A DNA stretch of 42,114 bases from a virus (Duplodnaviria; Heunggongvirae; Uroviricota; Caudoviricetes): IMG/VR virus record IMGVR_UViG_2561511241_000009, positions 1 to 42,114 of that record; one strand, given 5' to 3'. The notes under the pieces were generated by a model, which saw only the letters and a program-made list of their open reading frames with translations, was not told the origin of the DNA and did not search any database. Both the position numbers and the translations under genes were made by a program. Shown here in pieces: positions 6,360 to 36,955 of this stretch. The first letter of the stretch is position 1. The number at the start of each line of letters is the position of its first letter.

Positions 6360-8387
6360 TTATGCTGTCGCATTCCACTCTCCTGTATTCATCACCCACG
6401 CTGATACCACCCTTGAATATACCAATGTGGCTGTGGTCATTTTGATCTGAGATGTATTTGCTCCTGTGACATTTACTGGAACCCCTGCAATAGATAGCGA
6501 TGATATATTTGAACCCCTGAGAATAAATCCAATCTTCTGACCATCATATGGCGTCCCTGTAAATGATATGTTTTCTCCTGATATAACATTACGTCTATAC
6601 CAAGAGAATCCCATATTAATATCAACAGTATTATCTGATAACTGAAGAACACCATTTCTGTTAACTTTTGCCGACGAAAGAACACCAAGATCTGCTGATG
6701 TAATTCCCTGGTCTGATTTCCATGTGTTGATATTAACTACAATGTTGGTCACTGTGGCATCAGAACCTCCATCAATTTTAAAGAATCCACCTGCTCTTGA
6801 TCCATAGACAGGCTCATCAATCAAAGCATTTAGGGTGAGATTGCTTGCACTATAGGCGTTTGCTGGCAGACCAGCAGTTGTTGATGAGTGAGTACAACGG
6901 TGAAATAAAGCACCTACAGAACTCGACATTCTTACGTCTGACGAGCTATTGTTTTCAAAGTACATACCGTAGACTTTTGTACCTTGCGCTTGGTCAAGGA
7001 ACCCATATTTACTGCAATTTTGACTAAATCCACCTACAAATACTACGGCTTCAGTCGGGAATGTATTCACATAGTCCCACGTCGTCTCACCATTAAGACC
7101 ATGCCTAACAATTATTCCGTATTGCGGCATATCAATTTCTGGAGTGCCTGAATAACCATTAAAACCAGTAACTGTTATAGCATTTGCGCCGTTTCTTAAA
7201 AGAAGTCTAATTGATCCAGTGCCACCACCGATAACTTCACAGCCATCTACTTTTAGCCCGTAACATAGAGTGCCAATTTCAATTCCAACGTTGTTGGCGG
7301 CAGTTCCCATATTGACCCACATCATGTCAAGATGTCCATGGTTTCTGAACTTTATCCCTACAAATCCTCTACACCCTGTCTTCCCGCTAATGTCAATTCT
7401 CACGTTGTGTAACTTAACATTCCTTACTCCATTCCCTCCTGAAATTGTCGGATCGCAGGTCATTACTGTCATGTTATTGTTTGCAGGATATAATGTTGCT
7501 CCAGGATCCCACCAAATTTCCGTGTTTGGATATATCGCCCATGCTGTGCTGGTTGTATAAGTTCCTGATGAAACGTATATCTGACCAGCTGATGAAAGGA
7601 TTGACTGTATCTGAGTAGTATTCATAGATGGGTAAATAACCTTCGACGGCTTAACGCTACCTTTATAAGGGTAATCTTCCCAAATGCTGTTCCCGCCCCA
7701 CGAACTACCAACATGCTTATCGAACCCAGGCTGCGCGATCTGTAATAATACGTCAGATGCTGAACCGGATGGTGGCAGTACAGGATAAGGGTTACCTGCA
7801 CTGTCAAACGCAACTATTTTATTTGCCCTAGTCGCTGCGTCAGGAAGTTGAGGGATTTGCTCAGGCACTCGTAGGGTGCGGCTGTAATTATTGCTTGCCA
7901 GCGAGTCGACATAATTCTTTGTAGCCGCGTCCTGTTGGCGTATGGGATCGCGAAGATTTCTAATATAGTTGTTCAAAGCATCATAATAGTTTGCCACGAA
8001 TGATGGCTTGCGAAGCGCTAGGCTAAACCAACTTCTAACCTGCTGTATCAGCATCGTCAGTTTATCGAATGCGTCTTCATGCACCTCAGCGAAGAACTTA
8101 CCCTGGTTGCGCAGATCGGTATCCTGCGTAACCGGTAGCTCTCTTGATATAGAAATCTGATAACCGTTAACCAACGCCTTCGACAGAATTACATTGCCGC
8201 CGTTATACCCTCCCGCACCAGTGACTATGTAATCAGTATCAAGAATCAGCTCTGTGATGTTCTCGTTCAGGTCAACAACCTGCACTACTAAATCAGATTT
8301 CTGGAAAATCCTGAAGGTATAAGGGAATGTCGTTGTAACACCGTTACCGGTGTATTCGTTGTGGTCAACTTCGGTTGAGACCGTCAT
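6360..8387 (-). CDS. tailspike / tail fibre receptor-binding protein with T7 gp17-like N-terminal anchor domain
   Basis: N-terminus YTGNGVTTTFPYTF...VVQVVD...ISISRELPVTQDTDLRN parallels T7 tail-fibre N-domain pattern; long Gly/Asn/Thr-rich body; visibly AT-richer than flanks. Confidence 0.7.
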   Translation of the reverse strand: MTVSTEVDHNEYTGNGVTTTFPYTFRIFQKSDLVVQVVDLNENITELILDTDYIVTGAGGYNGGNVILSKALVNGYQISISRELPVTQDTDLRNQGKFFAEVHEDAFDKLTMLIQQVRSWFSLALRKPSFVANYYDALNNYIRNLRDPIRQQDAATKNYVDSLASNNYSRTLRVPEQIPQLPDAATRANKIVAFDSAGNPYPVLPPSGSASDVLLQIAQPGFDKHVGSSWGGNSIWEDYPYKGSVKPSKVIYPSMNTTQIQSILSSAGQIYVSSGTYTTSTAWAIYPNTEIWWDPGATLYPANNNMTVMTCDPTISGGNGVRNVKLHNVRIDISGKTGCRGFVGIKFRNHGHLDMMWVNMGTAANNVGIEIGTLCYGLKVDGCEVIGGGTGSIRLLLRNGANAITVTGFNGYSGTPEIDMPQYGIIVRHGLNGETTWDYVNTFPTEAVVFVGGFSQNCSKYGFLDQAQGTKVYGMYFENNSSSDVRMSSSVGALFHRCTHSSTTAGLPANAYSASNLTLNALIDEPVYGSRAGGFFKIDGGSDATVTNIVVNINTWKSDQGITSADLGVLSSAKVNRNGVLQLSDNTVDINMGFSWYRRNVISGENISFTGTPYDGQKIGFILRGSNISSLSIAGVPVNVTGANTSQIKMTTATLVYSRVVSAWVMNTGEWNATA

Positions 8388-8491
8388 GTTAAATCTCCAG
8401 ATAGTCGCAGCACCCGTTGCGCCGCATATCCGGTTATTCTATTACCTGAAAAACCATATATGGATAGACAACCCATAAATACGAACAGATA

Positions 8492-8506
8492 TTACCTTTC
8501 AGGTGA
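8492..8506. promoter_or_regulatory. operator-like palindrome TTACCtttcaGGTgA
   Basis: Member of the recurring (A/T)TTACC-N5-GGTAA(T/A) family; one mismatch; ~40 bp upstream of LexA box. Confidence 0.55.
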
Positions 8507-8543
8507 TTCGCAAAACGTGCTGGATAGCAAATAAATTATTTGA

Positions 8544-8563
8544 TACTGTATATTTATACAGTT
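8544..8563. promoter_or_regulatory. LexA (SOS) box
   Basis: TACTGTATATTTATACAGTT = CTGT-N8-ACAG, near-identical to the E. coli consensus TACTGTATATATATACAGTA; 20 bp upstream of ATG 8583. Confidence 0.8.
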
Positions 8564-8582
8564 ATTGCATGGAGAAGATAAG

Positions 8583-8840
8583 ATGCAGCAGTATCACTAT
8601 CCACTGGAAGACGGATTTACCGAAAGGATTCACACGCCGGGAGGCGTTAGATCACTGGTGGAGGGATCGCACTTGATGAAATTACTCCGGGAGCTCGATA
8701 AGGATGGATTTAATGTCGATGGCCCACTTGCCGAACTGACTGCACTGATTAACTACGTCACCAGCTCACAGATGTCTATGCGGGATCTGCAAACACATCT
8801 CGACTATTGTGCCGAACAATTACGAAAACAAACCAGATAA
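8583..8840 (+). CDS. small antirepressor-like protein (stand-alone antirepressor C-terminal domain)
   Basis: GGAG RBS; 85 aa; strongly similar to the C-terminal 65 aa of the BRO-N protein at 9156-9866 (IHTPGGVRSLVEGSHLMKLL...RDLQTH vs IHSPSGVLGLTENSLLMNLL...RDIQTH). Confidence 0.6.
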   Translation: MQQYHYPLEDGFTERIHTPGGVRSLVEGSHLMKLLRELDKDGFNVDGPLAELTALINYVTSSQMSMRDLQTHLDYCAEQLRKQTR

Positions 8841-8871
8841 GGTTTGCAATTACCAAGTGGAGTGCTTATAT

Positions 8872-8886
8872 TTACCTTTGCGGTAA
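8872..8886. promoter_or_regulatory. operator-like palindrome TTACCtttgcGGTAA
   Basis: Perfect match to the recurring palindrome, in the 300-bp non-coding gap upstream of the BRO-N gene. Confidence 0.55.
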
Positions 8887-8976
8887 ATTTACATCGCACT
8901 CCTCTTGTGCCATAGTAATCGGGCACTGGAAAAATCCAGTGCCGGGATTGGCGTCCCGAGTTACTAAGTGGCGCAT

Positions 8977-8999
8977 ACCACGCCAGACGTGGTTTTTTT
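8977..8999 (+). terminator. putative rho-independent terminator
   Basis: CCACG-ccaga-CGTGG then TTTTTTT. Confidence 0.55.
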
Positions 9000-9155
9000 A
9001 TGCGTTAAGCACAGCCATATCCGAATTATGGTGGGCTGGGCAGGGGTCCGAAAGGACGCCGGTACCACTTAGGCCGGTACGCCAACCTTGTCCAGTTCAC
9101 CACCAGTAATTGGCGTTGCGGTGGTGATTAAAATCACTAAGTGGAGATAACCACC

Positions 9156-9866
9156 ATGGCTAATGCTCAAACTGCCATCTTCAAATTTGAATCTGTTAAC
9201 CCTATCCGTTCCATCATTATCGATGGCCAACCATGGTTTGTAGCCCAAGACGTTTGTAGTGCGCTGCGTATCCAAAACGTCACCCAATCACTTGAAAAAC
9301 TGGATGATGATGAAAGGTCTATGTTCAACATAGGGCATGAACATCGTGCAATTTTTGATAGCCGAGTAAAAGAGCTCAACATCATCTCCGAGTCAGGCCT
9401 CTACACACTGATCCTCCGCTGCCGCGATGCGGTGACACCAGGCACTATCCCCTACCGCTTTCGTAAATGGGTTACAGGTGAGGTTCTTCCTCAGATCCGC
9501 CGCACCGGAAGTTACATTAAAGACTCGCTCCCGCAGGAAGAACGCATAAAGATGGTTGCCGACCAGGTAGCCAACGCCACGGCGTCAGCAGTAATACAGG
9601 CAATGAAGATAGAGAACAAAACCTACAGTGCCCCACTGAAGCCCGGCTACCGCAGCCTGATTCACTCGCCGTCTGGTGTTCTCGGCCTGACGGAGAACTC
9701 ACTGCTGATGAATCTGCTGAACCAGTTGCAGGACGACGGGCACGACGTATCTGGCGCGGCGGCGGAGCTGACCACCATGTTCTGCTACATCGTCGGTGTG
9801 AGCAAATGCCTGCGTGATATCCAGACGCACGCGGAGTACATCAACGACAAGGCAGGGTTCTTCTGA
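9156..9866 (+). CDS. BRO-N domain antirepressor (KilA-C/Ant-type C-terminus)
   Basis: N-terminus IFKFESVNPIRSIIIDGQPWFVAQDVCSAL fits BRO-N pattern; C-terminus paralogous to 8583-8840 product; GGAG RBS before ATG 9156 (track ORF starts at GTG 9141). Confidence 0.7.
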   Translation: MANAQTAIFKFESVNPIRSIIIDGQPWFVAQDVCSALRIQNVTQSLEKLDDDERSMFNIGHEHRAIFDSRVKELNIISESGLYTLILRCRDAVTPGTIPYRFRKWVTGEVLPQIRRTGSYIKDSLPQEERIKMVADQVANATASAVIQAMKIENKTYSAPLKPGYRSLIHSPSGVLGLTENSLLMNLLNQLQDDGHDVSGAAAELTTMFCYIVGVSKCLRDIQTHAEYINDKAGFF

Positions 9867-9875
9867 CAGAACGGC

Positions 9876-9896
9876 GGCACAGGGATGTGCCTTTAA
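9876..9896 (+). terminator. weak terminator-like hairpin
   Basis: GGCACA-ggga-TGTGCC then TTTAAATAATT. Confidence 0.4.
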
Positions 9897-9939
9897 ATAA
9901 TTCTGTACAGATTGCAGACTGTGGGTGAATAGCGTACTA

Positions 9940-9954
9940 TTACCTTAAAGGTAA
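9940..9954. promoter_or_regulatory. operator-like palindrome TTACCttaaaGGTAA
   Basis: Perfect palindrome immediately abutting the AGGAGG RBS of the 9967 ORF. Confidence 0.55.
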
Positions 9955-9966
9955 AGGAGGCGCGAT

Positions 9967-10134
9967 ATGACAGCGTTGAAAAATCGTACTCAGCACAATG
10001 AACAAGCCAAGCAATGCTGGGATGTCATTGGAAAAGTTATGCTTGGCCGCGCAAGCAAAGAGCGCGACAAGGATATGGTTTACCAGACAGGAACATCTTT
10101 CAGCGACTTCAAGGCGGCATTTCGCTCCAAATAG
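9967..10134 (+). CDS. hypothetical small protein (55 aa)
   Basis: AAGGAGG RBS with 6-nt spacer to ATG; open 55-codon frame; absent from ORF track (below 60 aa). Confidence 0.5.
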   Translation: MTALKNRTQHNEQAKQCWDVIGKVMLGRASKERDKDMVYQTGTSFSDFKAAFRSK

Positions 10135-10154
10135 AAGCACATCAGGAGTTTTCC

Positions 10155-10595
10155 TTGAAGTTTAACATTAGAATATCTAATAGTTTTCTACATGGGGAAA
10201 GCAACACCCCTTTCGCTGTAGACGGACCTTTCCTTACTGATGATGAAATAAAAATCATACAAAGTTTTTTAGAGGATGTTGCCAATGGAAGGGCGCTTGT
10301 TGGAAAAAACAAGCCCTCGTGGGTTGATGATAACCATGATAAAATTCCCGGCTCAGACAATTATGAGCAAGAGAATTATTGGCATTATCATTGTGGGCCA
10401 ACATGGTATCCAAACACATTTAAGAATTATACCATTAACTTAAATTTCAACCCTGGCGGAATGCATTCTAATGAATGCATTCATTATGCAAAAAATGATA
10501 ATGAAATTGTCATTGTTGGATTTTCAAGAGAACACATACCTTTCCTTTCATCAGATGGAAATAACAATCCGCTTTTTAATGATGAAGAAGAATAA
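10155..10595 (+). CDS. hypothetical protein, AT-rich cargo gene (TTG start proposed, 146 aa)
   Basis: AGGAG then 6 nt then TTG at 10155; no in-frame ATG before residue ~130; strong AT-rich codon bias (many N/K/I/F); acidic C-tail; no recognisable family. Confidence 0.45.
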   Translation: MKFNIRISNSFLHGESNTPFAVDGPFLTDDEIKIIQSFLEDVANGRALVGKNKPSWVDDNHDKIPGSDNYEQENYWHYHCGPTWYPNTFKNYTINLNFNPGGMHSNECIHYAKNDNEIVIVGFSREHIPFLSSDGNNNPLFNDEEE

Positions 10596-10689
10596 GCCCG
10601 CGCTGCGGGATTTTTTGTGGACGAAACAAAAGTCAGTGCTAACACTCATTGACGCCACATTGAGGTGGCTTATAGATGGAAATTTCACA

Positions 10690-10851
10690 ATGAAAAAAGC
10701 ATTTGCTGCACTGTTCGTTTTGTTGTCTCTGGTAGCTTCAACTCAGGCCTTTGCCGGTCGTTGTCAGCACGACAGCGACACTGCTGCTGACGGCTCCCGC
10801 TGCGGTGGGCGTTCTGCGGATTCCCGCCCGGGTGGCGGTGGCATTCGTTAA
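10690..10851 (+). CDS. hypothetical secreted small protein (53 aa, signal peptide, 2 Cys)
   Basis: MKKAFAALFVLLSLVASTQAFA signal peptide with AxA cleavage site; Gly/Arg/Asp-rich mature part; weak RBS. Confidence 0.4.
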   Translation: MKKAFAALFVLLSLVASTQAFAGRCQHDSDTAADGSRCGGRSADSRPGGGGIR

Positions 10852-10889: not shown

Positions 10890-11303
10890 TTATAAAGATG
10901 ACTGATATTTTACAACTCTGTTCATGGCATCTTTTTTCACCGAGCTGATATCAGTTCTTATTTTGGCTTCGTCATTACTGCTTATCATGCTATTAATTTT
11001 TTGCACTGACATGCCGTTTCTTTCAGCCATTGCACATACAGCAGCATCGTATGAAGAACTCGCTGCGATGGATATCACCTTGTTACACTCAAACACAGCA
11101 CCTTCAGCAATATCAGATGCCGATGAGGCTGGCTTGGTATAAGTCTTGACGTAGTGATCAATACAACTATCCTTCGCCGTCTTGGCAAGAGAAAAATCCA
11201 TTTTAACTTTGTCGCAATATGCCTTATCAACACCGTCATAAACATCATAGGATGTCGAGCAAGCGGATATCAAAAATACCGATAACAGCAATAATTCCTT
11301 CAT
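10890..11303 (-). CDS. phage lipoprotein (cargo; superinfection-exclusion candidate)
   Basis: Signal peptide plus lipobox (LISAC); AT-rich; last gene of the leftward structural operon. Confidence 0.6.
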   Translation of the reverse strand: MKELLLLSVFLISACSTSYDVYDGVDKAYCDKVKMDFSLAKTAKDSCIDHYVKTYTKPASSASDIAEGAVFECNKVISIAASSSYDAAVCAMAERNGMSVQKINSMISSNDEAKIRTDISSVKKDAMNRVVKYQSSL

Positions 11304-19114: not shown

Positions 19115-21585
19115 CAGAATCCCCCAACAGTAAGGCGAGGAATAACGGCAAGAACAGACAGCGGCAACGGGTCAAGCTGACGGATTTTTACACGTCCGTT
19201 TTTGCCCCAGTTACTGTCCAGTTTCACTTCTACTTTTCCGGTAGCATCATCAACAGGATCATCGTAGAACTCGAATTCACGCTGTGGATATTCGTACCAT
19301 TTACCGCCAGGCGTAGTCGCCCAGATGCCGCGGCTGGCATTCACAACCAGAGTAACGGACGGGATCACCTGTTTTTTGTCCAGCAGCGTTTCCTGTCCGT
19401 TAATGTTGATATCCAGTGTTTCGAATTCAGCAGTTATTGGCAGGCCGATGTGCACTACAGCCCCCGGAGATTCCAGCGTGACGGCACCTCCGGAAACTAC
19501 TTTCTGTGGTTCCACGTTCGCATCAGAGAGAATGTTTACGGTCTGGCCTTCAAGATGAGACAGGCCTCCAAATGTCCGGCGCGCCATCTGCCAGTTCGTG
19601 GTGGCCACATTCCTGAGGGATGGCGGGACGTTCCTGTTAGCACGAACCACTACAGCGGTATTGCTGGTTACAGAAATAATGTCGCAACGTAATTCTTTTG
19701 ACACTTCATCGCCAGTACCAGGATCAGTTCCGGTATAAGGGAACTGTAGTTGCGCGCCGACATCACTACTGGTGAAGTACGCACCACCAGAAACACTGAT
19801 TGTATATTCCGCACGGTAATCCCATTCACCAGAACCACCAGTGATGGTCATCGTTCTGTCAGACGTATTTCTTCCATCATAGCTAAGGCCAGAATCAACA
19901 AAGAAAGCATCTTCATCGCTGGTAAATAAACGGCTGGACAGCCGCTCGATGTATCTCACTGTTTGCCCGTTAACGGTTCGGTTAACGACGAAATACACCG
20001 CATCTTCATTGCCTTCGCTGATACTGCATGTGCTTTCATATTTTCCGGTACTGGATTGTGGTGCCCATGCAAAAACCTGCTGATCACGCAAATAGGTCAT
20101 CACCAGTAATTTACCGTCATCACGAATGCAGAAGGCGCTGGAGTAAGGGACAATCGAGAAGCACCAGTCAACAATGCTGTGCTTCTGAAAAAGATGATTG
20201 GCAAGGATGGTCAGGTCGTTCCCCTGATAGCCGTCAACATCGAATGAGTAGGCCAGATCACGGACAACACTGCCTTTCTCCTGGACGAACAGAGCAATAT
20301 TCGCCACGGCAATTGGTGGGACATTGCTCGAGCCATTTGATCCCTGAGAGCTGAATGCAAATGATGATGGGGCAAGCACTTTGTTCTGGTCGCCAGTGAT
20401 GACGTACTCACCTCCGGAAGTCAGCGCCACCAGCGAACCAACATCAATCAGGTGACGGATCTCATTAACCTGACGCCCGGCATAGGTGTAGATAATTCTG
20501 TCGTCATCCTGCGTAGGATTGCTTTTGCCAAAATCCTTATAATCCCCGGTACGGCTGGCCCAGATAGTCTGAGGGAACGCAGTCGATGCGGCGAAGTAAA
20601 GGCGTTGTTGATAATAAACAACAGTGCCAGGATAACCGTTAATACTGTCCCAGGCATATTTAGCCCATTTATAGCTGGCATTATCCTCGCCAACTACCTG
20701 CGAAGGGATATAGGAAATCACCTCGGCAGTTGCAGTAGTTCCATTTGCAGCAGAGATACGGGCAATGCCAAAACCACTGTGCAGATACTCCCACTCAATG
20801 CCGGTATCATCATCACCGGATCCGCCCCAGCCATCCCATGATGTGCCTTCTGTATGCGAAGGGCGCAAAGTGCCTGTTTTGCCTGCTGTAACGGCGCGAT
20901 AGTAGTTACTGTCTGCACGGCGAATATCGCCAATCGACGTACTCTTACTGGTTTCCCATACCGGCACAGAATCCACTGCAGGCTGTTCCAGATAGAACAA
21001 TTTGCCTACCTGCTCCGCGCCAAAAATTGAGGCGCTTGCCGTTAACGTAATTGTCCCGGTGCTGGCGCTGGCATAAACCGTCACTGACTCGTCAATATTG
21101 ATATCTTCAAATGGCCCGTTCTTCGTTACCACATCAACCAGTTGCCAGTTGTCATGCGCATAGCGGCGCAACTCTTTCGGCGGGTATGCCGGATGAACCA
21201 GCGTAAGCACGTCTGCGCTTTGCGTGAATTTAATTCGGAACAGATCGGCTTCAGTATATGGCGTGGCAATTTCATAAATAACATTGCTGCTGTTCAGCAC
21301 CAACGCACCATCTTTGATAACGCGCATGTACTGGTGTCCGAACTCCAGAGCATAAGTCTGAACCGTCGAGAACTGGAACGGGATTAGGCGGCATTTCCGA
21401 TTTGGGTATTTGGCGGCACCGACAAAACGCGTACCAGGTCGATTCTCAACGCCGCCATACTGCCGCACGATAAAGTTATCGCACTTGCGCAATGCCACCT
21501 GGTACTTCGCCATGTCGATACGACCGTACAACGACGGTCCAATCTCACCACCGGCAAAGCTGGGCTGGATCCAACTGATAGCCAT
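19114..21585 (-). CDS. tail tubular protein B-like (nozzle), 823 aa
   Basis: Size and N-terminus MAISWIQPSFAGGEIGPSL parallel T7 gp12 (MALISQSIKNLKGGISQQP pattern); follows tubular A-like gene. Confidence 0.55.
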   Translation of the reverse strand: MAISWIQPSFAGGEIGPSLYGRIDMAKYQVALRKCDNFIVRQYGGVENRPGTRFVGAAKYPNRKCRLIPFQFSTVQTYALEFGHQYMRVIKDGALVLNSSNVIYEIATPYTEADLFRIKFTQSADVLTLVHPAYPPKELRRYAHDNWQLVDVVTKNGPFEDINIDESVTVYASASTGTITLTASASIFGAEQVGKLFYLEQPAVDSVPVWETSKSTSIGDIRRADSNYYRAVTAGKTGTLRPSHTEGTSWDGWGGSGDDDTGIEWEYLHSGFGIARISAANGTTATAEVISYIPSQVVGEDNASYKWAKYAWDSINGYPGTVVYYQQRLYFAASTAFPQTIWASRTGDYKDFGKSNPTQDDDRIIYTYAGRQVNEIRHLIDVGSLVALTSGGEYVITGDQNKVLAPSSFAFSSQGSNGSSNVPPIAVANIALFVQEKGSVVRDLAYSFDVDGYQGNDLTILANHLFQKHSIVDWCFSIVPYSSAFCIRDDGKLLVMTYLRDQQVFAWAPQSSTGKYESTCSISEGNEDAVYFVVNRTVNGQTVRYIERLSSRLFTSDEDAFFVDSGLSYDGRNTSDRTMTITGGSGEWDYRAEYTISVSGGAYFTSSDVGAQLQFPYTGTDPGTGDEVSKELRCDIISVTSNTAVVVRANRNVPPSLRNVATTNWQMARRTFGGLSHLEGQTVNILSDANVEPQKVVSGGAVTLESPGAVVHIGLPITAEFETLDININGQETLLDKKQVIPSVTLVVNASRGIWATTPGGKWYEYPQREFEFYDDPVDDATGKVEVKLDSNWGKNGRVKIRQLDPLPLSVLAVIPRLTVGGF

Positions 21586-27718: not shown

Positions 27719-27795
27719 GTGGCATTAGCTCAGTCGGACAGAGCAACCGCCTTCTAAGCGGTTGGTCGCAGGTTCGAATCCTGCATGCCACGCCA
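27719..27795 (+). tRNA. tRNA-Arg (anticodon UCU)
   Basis: Manual fold: acceptor GTGGCAT/ATGCCAC, D-stem GCTC/GAGC, anticodon stem ACCGC/GCGGT with loop CTTCTAA, T-arm GCAGG-TTCGAAT-CCTGC, discriminator G, encoded CCA. Confidence 0.9.
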
Positions 27796-36370: not shown

Positions 36371-36955
36371 ATGAAAAGTATCCAGGACGTCCGCAGGCAA
36401 AATCTCAACGACTTGATCGACCGTGAATTCAATGGTGTTCAGACGCGGATGGCAGAAAAACTTGGAACTCAGGCAAATCTGGTAAACCGCTGGGCTCTTG
36501 GCAAGAAGGTTATCGGCGACCAAGTTGCACGAAAAATTGAAGCTGCCGCCAATAAACCCCGTAACTGGCTTGATATCGATCGCTCGCTTTCTCAGGAAGG
36601 TTTTCAGCCTGTCGGCCCAAGCGACATTGGCCAGCTGGCGGCTCACAACCTGGAACGCTGGATGAGCGAAAGCCGCGACCTTTCAACACAGGGAAAACTT
36701 CACCGCGCATCCGGCGTAGCCCAGGTGACAATCAGCCGCCTGTTAAACAATGAGGTCAGCGTTTCCATTTCCACCCTGGAGAATGTTGCATCCGCATTCG
36801 GGCGTCACGGCTATGAATTACTGATTCACCCGCACGACCCTGCGACCATCAACTATGATCGCTCGCGCTACGCATTGTTACCCGAAACCGAGAAAGCAAA
36901 GATCGAAAGTTACATTGAATTTGTCATCAACCAGAACGAAAAAAACAAACAATAA
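36371..36955 (+). CDS. phage repressor, tandem HTH (XRE-type), no S24 peptidase domain
   Basis: Two HTH-like segments (TRMAEKLGTQANLVNRW and ASGVAQVTISRLLNNEV); no Ala-Gly/Ser-Lys autocleavage module; divergent from Cro-like gene. Confidence 0.6.
   Translation: MKSIQDVRRQNLNDLIDREFNGVQTRMAEKLGTQANLVNRWALGKKVIGDQVARKIEAAANKPRNWLDIDRSLSQEGFQPVGPSDIGQLAAHNLERWMSESRDLSTQGKLHRASGVAQVTISRLLNNEVSVSISTLENVASAFGRHGYELLIHPHDPATINYDRSRYALLPETEKAKIESYIEFVINQNEKNKQ

Follow-up and report, generated by a model that had tools for sequence, protein, structure and literature searches.

How does a prophage leave the lysogenic state when its repressor has no recognizable autocleavage domain, and what is the place of a second, larger antirepressor-like gene beside the small one that could answer that question? 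We addressed both points in a viral DNA stretch of 42,114 nucleotides (IMG/VR record IMGVR_UViG_2561511241_000009, positions 1 to 42,114; hereafter the window), in which a small gene behind a LexA box, ant (8583-8840), is followed by a gene for a BRO-N protein (9156-9866). The window is an E. coli prophage of the genus Uetakevirus (epsilon15/phiV10/SPC32H-like), and the locus is its anti-immunity region. Positions 8400-10200 match the E. coli UMNK88 chromosome at 100% identity, and the nearest phage records, HEMP4, phiv142-3, TL-2011b and phiV10, are all Uetakevirus, that is, epsilon15-like podoviruses. The locus lies on the plus strand between minus-strand genes for the tailspike (6360-8387), with which a divergent tailspike-lysis operon starts, and for large virion proteins (11313 onwards). 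Among 5426 complete E. coli genomes it is present at 80% coverage or more in 132 and at least partially in 535. Our reading, to which we assign a probability of roughly 0.78, is that two tandem cassettes make up the locus: cassette A would supply an SOS-induced antirepressor, Ant, and cassette B an RNA-gated fusion protein, BRO-N::Ant, that is repressed by the prophage repressor, Rep (36371-36955), and carries a second copy of the Ant domain.

The evidence for cassette A begins with its promoter. The LexA box (SOS box; TACTGTATATTTATACAGTT, 8544-8563, plus strand) has two mismatches to the 20-nt consensus and is the sole site with three or fewer mismatches in the 42 kb; none of 100 shuffled sequences gave any match, and only three CTGT-N8-ACAG cores occur in the window. 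Nineteen nucleotides separate the end of the box from the ATG at 8583, and a Shine-Dalgarno sequence, GGAG (8571-8574), precedes the ATG by eight bases. The encoded 85-aa protein (plus strand, PHROG 450) is an orthologue of Ant of the Salmonella phage SPC32H, with 88% identity over 83 aa to SPC32H_020, annotated 'ant: anti-repressor protein', and a full-length match to chain E of PDB entry 5D50 ('Anti-repressor protein') at E = 5.5e-47. By tblastn it is present in 35 phage genome records, including the Salmonella phages SPC32H and SPC32N; the sets of phage records (35-36) that hold Rep and Ant homologues are essentially identical. When the promoter was aligned with those of SPC32H and phiV10, the LexA box and a palindrome upstream of it were kept although the flanks diverge. 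We also noted a plus-strand promoter-like site at 8465-8493; it is not kept in SPC32H and is probably a chance match.

A variant phage bears on the box. SPC32N and SPC32H differ at two positions in the 601-bp stretch that we compared (19600-20200), and one of the two changes ACAG to AAAG in the right half-site of the LexA box. Kim and Ryu (J Virol, 2013) reportedly found that SPC32N is two nucleotides away from SPC32H, including one within the LexA site, and that Ant is made constitutively as a result. That the box is fortuitous and that induction takes another route, such as RecA-mediated cleavage of a repressor, is a reading to which we give almost no weight: we found no point in its favor, and it is opposed by the shuffling result, by conservation of the box across genera, by the absence of a Peptidase_S24 domain in the repressor and its neighbors, and by the SPC32N mutation, since just two positions distinguish SPC32N from SPC32H in that stretch and one of them falls in this box.

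The predicted target of Ant is the 194-aa product of rep (36371-36955, plus strand), which matches chain A of 5D50 ('Repressor') over residues 1-190 at E = 4e-42. Pfam assigns it an HTH_3 domain at residues 106-147 and a weaker N-terminal helix-turn-helix (HTH) at residues 21-61, and a Pfam domain search detected no Peptidase_S24 in Rep or in neighboring immunity-region proteins. From these matches Rep appears to have the SPC32H-type layout, with a DNA-binding HTH at the N-terminus and an Ant-binding domain at the C-terminus, and to be non-autocleavable. For SPC32H, secondary papers describe a Rep tetramer that stays uncleaved but is broken up when a tetrameric Ant binds two Rep dimers; for Salmonella phages more generally, a secondary paper gives the order as self-cleavage of LexA followed by Ant synthesis. 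By homology, host LexA would occupy the SOS box at the ant promoter of the lysogen, and DNA damage would remove it and allow the 85-aa Ant to be made. Binding of Ant to the C-terminal domains of Rep would then free this apparently non-cleavable repressor from its operators, TTACC-N5-GGTAA palindromes, whereupon lytic growth would begin. The initial annotation, made from the sequence alone, had pointed to the same route: a near-consensus LexA box ahead of the 85-aa gene, two HTH modules but no recognizable S24 domain in the repressor, and induction through an antirepressor released from LexA control instead of through repressor cleavage. All of these points stand. The box is unique in the window, and the mechanism is supported by the SPC32H orthologue, the conserved box and the 5D50 matches; it is correct, and for the orthologous Ant of SPC32H it has already been established.

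The second gene (9156-9866, plus strand) encodes a 236-aa protein assigned to PHROG 130/450. It is a BRO-N protein, as the initial annotation had it, with a Bro-N domain (PF02498) at residues 17-112 (E = 4.7e-19); this part is 50% identical to the antirepressor of phiKO2. The annotation had further described the 85-aa product as closely similar to the C-terminal ~65 aa of its neighbor. The similarity is real (E = 3e-16), albeit longer and less close than claimed: it extends without gaps over 78 aa (residues 155-232 of the fusion) at 41% identity. The same C-terminal domain matches chain E of 5D50, again ungapped, at E = 2.2e-13, and the homology of the two domains is settled by this match. Between the stand-alone and fused forms, 22 alignment columns are invariant. 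Neither Pfam nor NCBIfam holds a model for the Ant domain, the sole match being DUF724, below threshold. A word-indexed homologue search yielded nothing but nearly identical stand-alone Ants; the fusions came to light by exhaustive profile search. The latter search recovered only 60 clusters (at 50% identity) in 1.84 billion proteins, in which the domain either stands alone (~85-95 aa) or forms the C-terminus of proteins of 130-320 aa, with Bro-N, AntA, Rha or ORF6N as N-terminal partner.

The same pattern is found in related loci, for which all counts given here refer to 126 loci with copies of the C4 RNA described below, mostly from IMG/VR (our L006-L125). An Ant-domain open reading frame (ORF) follows C4 in 111 of them; its C-terminus is nearly constant, and its N-terminus is Bro-N in 96, AntA-like in 14 and ORF6N-like in one. 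A LexA box with an ORF of ~85 aa lies within 4 kb upstream in 98 of the 126, directly adjacent in 71 and behind an insertion of ~0.83-1.14 kb in 27, as in TL-2011b (L003, 2963-4051). The tandem arrangement of ant and fusion is thus common. In these 27 loci the insertion falls exactly between ant and the operator of isrK, where it would uncouple transcription of ant from the isrK terminator. The Ant of known structure thus represents, in free-standing form, a module that serves as effector in modular antirepressors of phages; among E. coli phages this module also sits under a c4/IsrK RNA switch directly 3' of ant.

That switch, which the initial annotation had overlooked, occupies the 316-bp interval separating ant from the BRO-N gene. 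It is a complete antisense-RNA switch of the P1/P7 c4 type; all of its elements are on the plus strand. A consensus scan placed a putative promoter for an isrK-c4-BRO-N transcript at 8888-8916 (-35 TTTACA, 17 nt, -10 CATAGT), ending 7 nt before the 5' end of an IsrK-like RNA as delimited by Rfam (8923-8999; RF01394, 66 bits against a gathering score of 50). Within this leader are two sequences complementary to C4, a1 (TTGGCGT, 8948-8954) and b1 (CTAAGTGG, 8964-8971), and scanning and folding identified an intrinsic terminator at 8977-8993 followed by U7. The C4 antisense RNA itself (9024-9107; RF01695, 66 bits against a gathering score of 45) has a predicted fold that agrees with the Rfam family (z = -4.5); the c4-a1b1 family (RF03163) also matched, at 40.9, which falls short of the gathering score of 46.7. 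In the C4 fold, b' is a hairpin loop, CCACTTAG (9065-9072), and a' is a single-stranded bulge, ACGCCAA (9079-9085). Downstream of C4 follow a second pair of targets, a2 (TTGGCGT, 9110-9116) and b2 (CTAAGTGG, 9137-9144), so placed that b2 runs into the Shine-Dalgarno sequence GGAG (9143-9146) of the BRO-N ATG at 9156. The antisense elements a' and b' match a1/b1 and a2/b2 exactly, over 7 nt for a and 8 nt for b. Two further complementarities were observed within the region. The 5' stem of C4 (ATGGTGG, 9028-9034) is complementary to the start-codon region of the BRO-N gene (CCACCAT, 9151-9157), and the 3' stem (9097-9104) is complementary to 9120-9127, a pairing that would put a2 in a hairpin loop. 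They suggest alternative cis structures, as described for isrK of Gifsy-1.

Comparison among phages shows these elements changing together, which speaks for a functional pairing. In phiV10 and TL-2011b, b' reads CCTTTTAG and both b1 and b2 read CTAAAAGG, while in phiv142-3, a' is AGACCAA and both a1 and a2 are TTGGTCT. Across ~120 IMG/VR loci that share the isrK hairpin there are at least four 'a' and at least six 'b' alleles, and in every case the three positions match one another. Direct observations are the sequence elements and homologies, the complementarity and covariation of the RNAs, and the operator family treated next.

Palindromes of the form TYACC-N5-GGTRA occur at 11 exact sites in the window, against 0.09 expected, and at 13 sites when one mismatch is allowed. 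Two of them (36253 and 36301) lie in the spacer between rep and cro, together with a motif read by eye at ~36285, and sites are also found downstream of rep and ahead of several operons (27382, 30546, 33891, 33953, 35916, 37013 and 37075). SPC32H has 18 sites of the family where 0.74 would be expected; its rep-cro spacer holds three, and one precedes ant. We infer from this distribution that the TTACC-N5-GGTAA-type palindrome is the operator of Rep. Such sites are spread over the whole prophage and stand before many operons.

Three of these operators flank the genes of interest. The first, TTACCTTTCAGGTGA (8492-8506), lies in the divergent control region between the tailspike gene and ant. The initial annotation had taken this palindrome as a sign that ant is also under repressor control. 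It is a genuine member of the operator family, and such control is plausible, but control of the divergent tailspike-lysis operon is equally possible. The site lies ~112 bp upstream of the tailspike start (114 bp in SPC32H) and ~35 bp upstream of any plausible -35 of ant; moreover, the plus-strand ant region separates the tailspike-lysis genes from the other late genes, so they need a control region of their own. However, the spacing of the site to the LexA box is equally conserved, with 54.5 bp centre to centre both here and in SPC32H, and a consensus scan revealed no convincing minus-strand promoter adjoining it. It could also serve both genes, or pair with the operator at 8872 by looping. 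On balance, we rate control of the tailspike-lysis operon instead of ant a serious contender at somewhat under even odds.

The second operator (8872-8886) is an exact TTACC-N5-GGTAA and abuts the -35 of the isrK/c4 promoter. Its position is fixed: in 113 of the 126 related loci an operator of this type lies at -51 (-51 to -37) from the 5' end of isrK, and in the phiV10 counterpart the half-sites are kept and the spacer is different. By analogy it may be the counterpart of Op51 of P1, the C1 operator at the immI promoter. Both this operator and the -35 of the isrK promoter lie within a strong hairpin (AAGTGGAGTGC...GCACTCCTCTT, 8856-8905). Lacking a U-tract, the hairpin is no terminator; its 5' arm includes a partial b-type target for C4, AAGTGG. 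The third operator (9940-9954), also exact, follows directly on a -10-like TACTAT (9935-9940), ahead of two ORFs of 55 and 146 aa.

Taken together, these elements suggest how cassette B would work. From the promoter flanked by the Rep operator, an IsrK-like leader with the a1/b1 decoys and a leaky terminator would be transcribed, then C4, then the fusion gene, and C4 would pair with a2/b2 over the ribosome-binding site of the fusion gene and block its translation. A lysogen would thus silence the fusion twice, through Rep at the promoter and through C4 at translation. The protein would be made only with Rep gone, or upon entry of a phage with a non-matching c4 allele, and its Ant-like C-terminal domain would then inactivate Rep. 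The outcome would be either that induction is reinforced or that the Rep immunity of a resident relative is overridden, as in P1 versus P7. Binding by LexA, Rep and C4, binding of the fusion to Rep and the biological role of cassette B we infer from sequence and, for cassette B, from the precedents of P1, N15 and Gifsy-1. As to the target, the E. coli Uetakeviruses of the phage collection all have a Rep that is 98.5-100% identical, yet they differ in their c4 alleles. A constant repressor combined with differing c4 alleles is the P1/P7 pattern, and on this ground we argue that the target of the fusion is Rep itself.

Several observations weigh against this account of the locus. No -35 and -10 of ant could be placed with confidence from the sequence. 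No icd-like or orf45-like coupling ORF lies between isrK or C4 (ending at 8999 and 9107) and the ATG at 9156; the only candidate is a 14-codon ORF inside C4. Rep is only 42% identical to its SPC32H counterpart while Ant is 88% identical, and the conservation of the Ant-Rep interface is therefore assumed. SPC32H and epsilon15 are without cassette B, and in phiV10 the fusion is truncated, so that this cassette is accessory and dispensable for the basic life cycle. The target of the fusion could also differ from that of Ant, because its Ant domain is only 41% identical. The gap in identity between Ant and Rep could reflect a small conserved Ant-binding patch on Rep, or an Ant that is constrained otherwise, for example by its own tetramer. 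The initial annotation had described the small gene as a stand-alone copy of the domain of a BRO-N antirepressor, and this view needs correcting: by its homology the small gene is the antirepressor of the characterized type, and the BRO-N protein, missing from SPC32H and incomplete in phiV10, is an accessory derivative.

The divergence of the fused domain and the dispensability of cassette B in SPC32H and phiV10 would also fit a different role, in which the fusion acts on the repressors of other prophages, in cross-talk of the Gifsy/Fels type, or its Bro-N domain has a DNA-directed role unrelated to immunity. Non-cognate antirepressor action is known in Salmonella (PMC3121763). We nevertheless consider this unlikely, since the Ant domain family is tiny, with the 60 clusters mentioned above, and co-occurs with Rep homologues in the phage collection, since a Rep-type operator stands at a fixed position on the promoter of the fusion, and since Rep as the target would account for c4 alleles that diversify while Rep itself does not vary. 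Less probable still is that the fusion modulates Ant through mixed oligomers, the two proteins sharing an oligomerization domain, and so damps or delays SOS induction. The domain is homologous in both proteins, with the 22 invariant columns between the stand-alone and fused forms, and it tetramerizes in SPC32H Ant according to secondary literature. However, the c4/IsrK modules of P1, N15 and Gifsy-1 all gate antirepressors that act positively, and in 19 of the 126 related loci the fusion and its operator occur without a small ant within 4 kb upstream. Inactivation of Rep by the fusion thus remains the role that we favor.

The two cassettes may also be coupled through RNA. Scanning and folding found no terminator between the stop codon of ant and the terminator of isrK, and therefore the ant mRNA should end with the a1/b1 decoy. 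In Gifsy-1, prophage induction requires short IsrK, which acts in trans to activate translation of the antirepressor encoded downstream (PMC4825925). By analogy, we speculate that the SOS-induced ant mRNA would carry a decoy that titrates C4 and turns the fusion on, and that the diversifying c4 alleles, with Rep invariant, give E. coli Uetakeviruses a second, RNA-based layer of immunity specificity, like that between P1 and P7; as a joint proposal we hold this to be tentative, and on the doubtful side. Were it true, the coupling would make of the reversible LexA signal a self-reinforcing commitment.

The 2.4-kb block 3' of ant comprises isrK, c4, BRO-N::Ant, two ORFs and a lipoprotein gene. 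The two ORFs, of 55 aa (9967-10134, plus strand, PHROG 8607) and 146 aa (10155-10595, plus strand, PHROG 5954), belong to PHROGs of unknown function and have no Pfam or NCBIfam match. At the analogous position TL-2011b carries a toxin pair of the YafO family, and the site may therefore be a toxin-antitoxin-like or cargo slot. Further on there are a short plus-strand ORF with a signal-peptide-like N-terminus (within 10471-10851) and a 137-aa lipoprotein-like ORF on the minus strand (10890-11303, PHROG 8691); lying between the antirepressor block and the virion genes, they are probably lysogenic-conversion cargo. TL-2011b has in addition a P22-type module of arc, sar RNA and ant (L003, 5960-7144), so that its antirepressor genes number three, each with a different control (LexA, c4 and sar/Arc). 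Elsewhere in the prophage there is a tRNA-Arg gene (anticodon TCT; 27719-27795, plus strand), and a tRNA-Arg is annotated at the equivalent place in SPC32H.

The core LexA-Ant-Rep mechanism is an already published and structurally solved system, and cassette A adds annotation value only, because its mechanism is documented for SPC32H. The genes of the locus are still labeled 'hypothetical protein' in RefSeq. The switch would also explain prophage induction by DNA-damaging drugs or bacteriocins without repressor cleavage in about one in ten complete E. coli genomes. What is new is the c4/IsrK gate, the reuse of the Ant domain behind exchangeable N-termini, the Rep operator at a fixed position and the diversity of c4 where Rep is constant. 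All this combines parts already known; it makes a testable model and a good annotation and does not amount to a new kind of system. The diversity of c4 on an identical Rep predicts RNA-based heteroimmunity and competition among related prophages, which are experimentally tractable.

Finally, the locus can be set against the systems from which its parts are known. The closest is the SPC32H switch (Kim and Ryu, J Virol, 2013; Kim et al., PNAS, 2016; PDB 5D50, 5D4Z), with an orthologous ant between tailspike and virion-protein genes, a LexA box, an upstream operator at the same spacing and of the same TTACC-N5-GGTAA family, and a homologous Rep that has two HTH modules but lacks S24; it differs in the low identity of its Rep (42%) and in having ant alone, without the 2.4-kb block. 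The immI region of P1 and P7 shares a C4 RNA of the same Rfam family, the a1 b1, a' b', a2 b2 layout with b2 over a ribosome-binding site, a putative operator of the primary repressor at the promoter, an antirepressor downstream and c4 alleles that differ despite a shared repressor. In P1, C4 blocks a ribosome-binding site ahead of the antirepressor; here the icd-like coupling ORF is absent, and C4 would therefore act directly on the ribosome-binding site of the antirepressor. The antirepressor is moreover of the BRO-N::SPC32H-Ant type and not P1 Ant1/2, and the phage is an integrating podovirus. The scattered Rep-type operators likewise resemble the multi-operator layout of P1 C1 and not a single lambda-like switch. 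With the modular BRO-N/KilA-N phage regulators the fusion shares an N-terminal Bro-N domain and an exchangeable C-terminal module. The isrK-orf45-anrP locus of Gifsy-1 has an isrK-family leader with a leaky terminator, a C4-like RNA found in processed form as STnc1160, and an antirepressor gene (PMC4825925), whereas here there is no orf45 and the leader lies directly 3' of a LexA-controlled gene. The initial annotation had likened the locus to the Gifsy phages and coliphage 186, and this holds for the regulatory logic, since Tum (186) and GfoA/GftA (Gifsy) are also small SOS-induced inactivators of non-cleavable repressors; it does not hold for the family, which is that of SPC32H Ant. No sequence relationship to those proteins was detected, in that Pfam and PDB searches, which included no direct comparison with Tum or GfoA, returned only SPC32H Ant; there is also no DinI partner gene here. 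In N15, an antA/antB locus (immA) is controlled by a c4-like RNA. AntC of N15 is under LexA control (PMC3121763). N15 and the phage described here thus both combine an SOS-controlled antirepressor with an RNA-gated anti-immunity antirepressor; in N15, however, the two loci lie apart and their proteins are unrelated, whereas here they are adjacent and share their effector domain.

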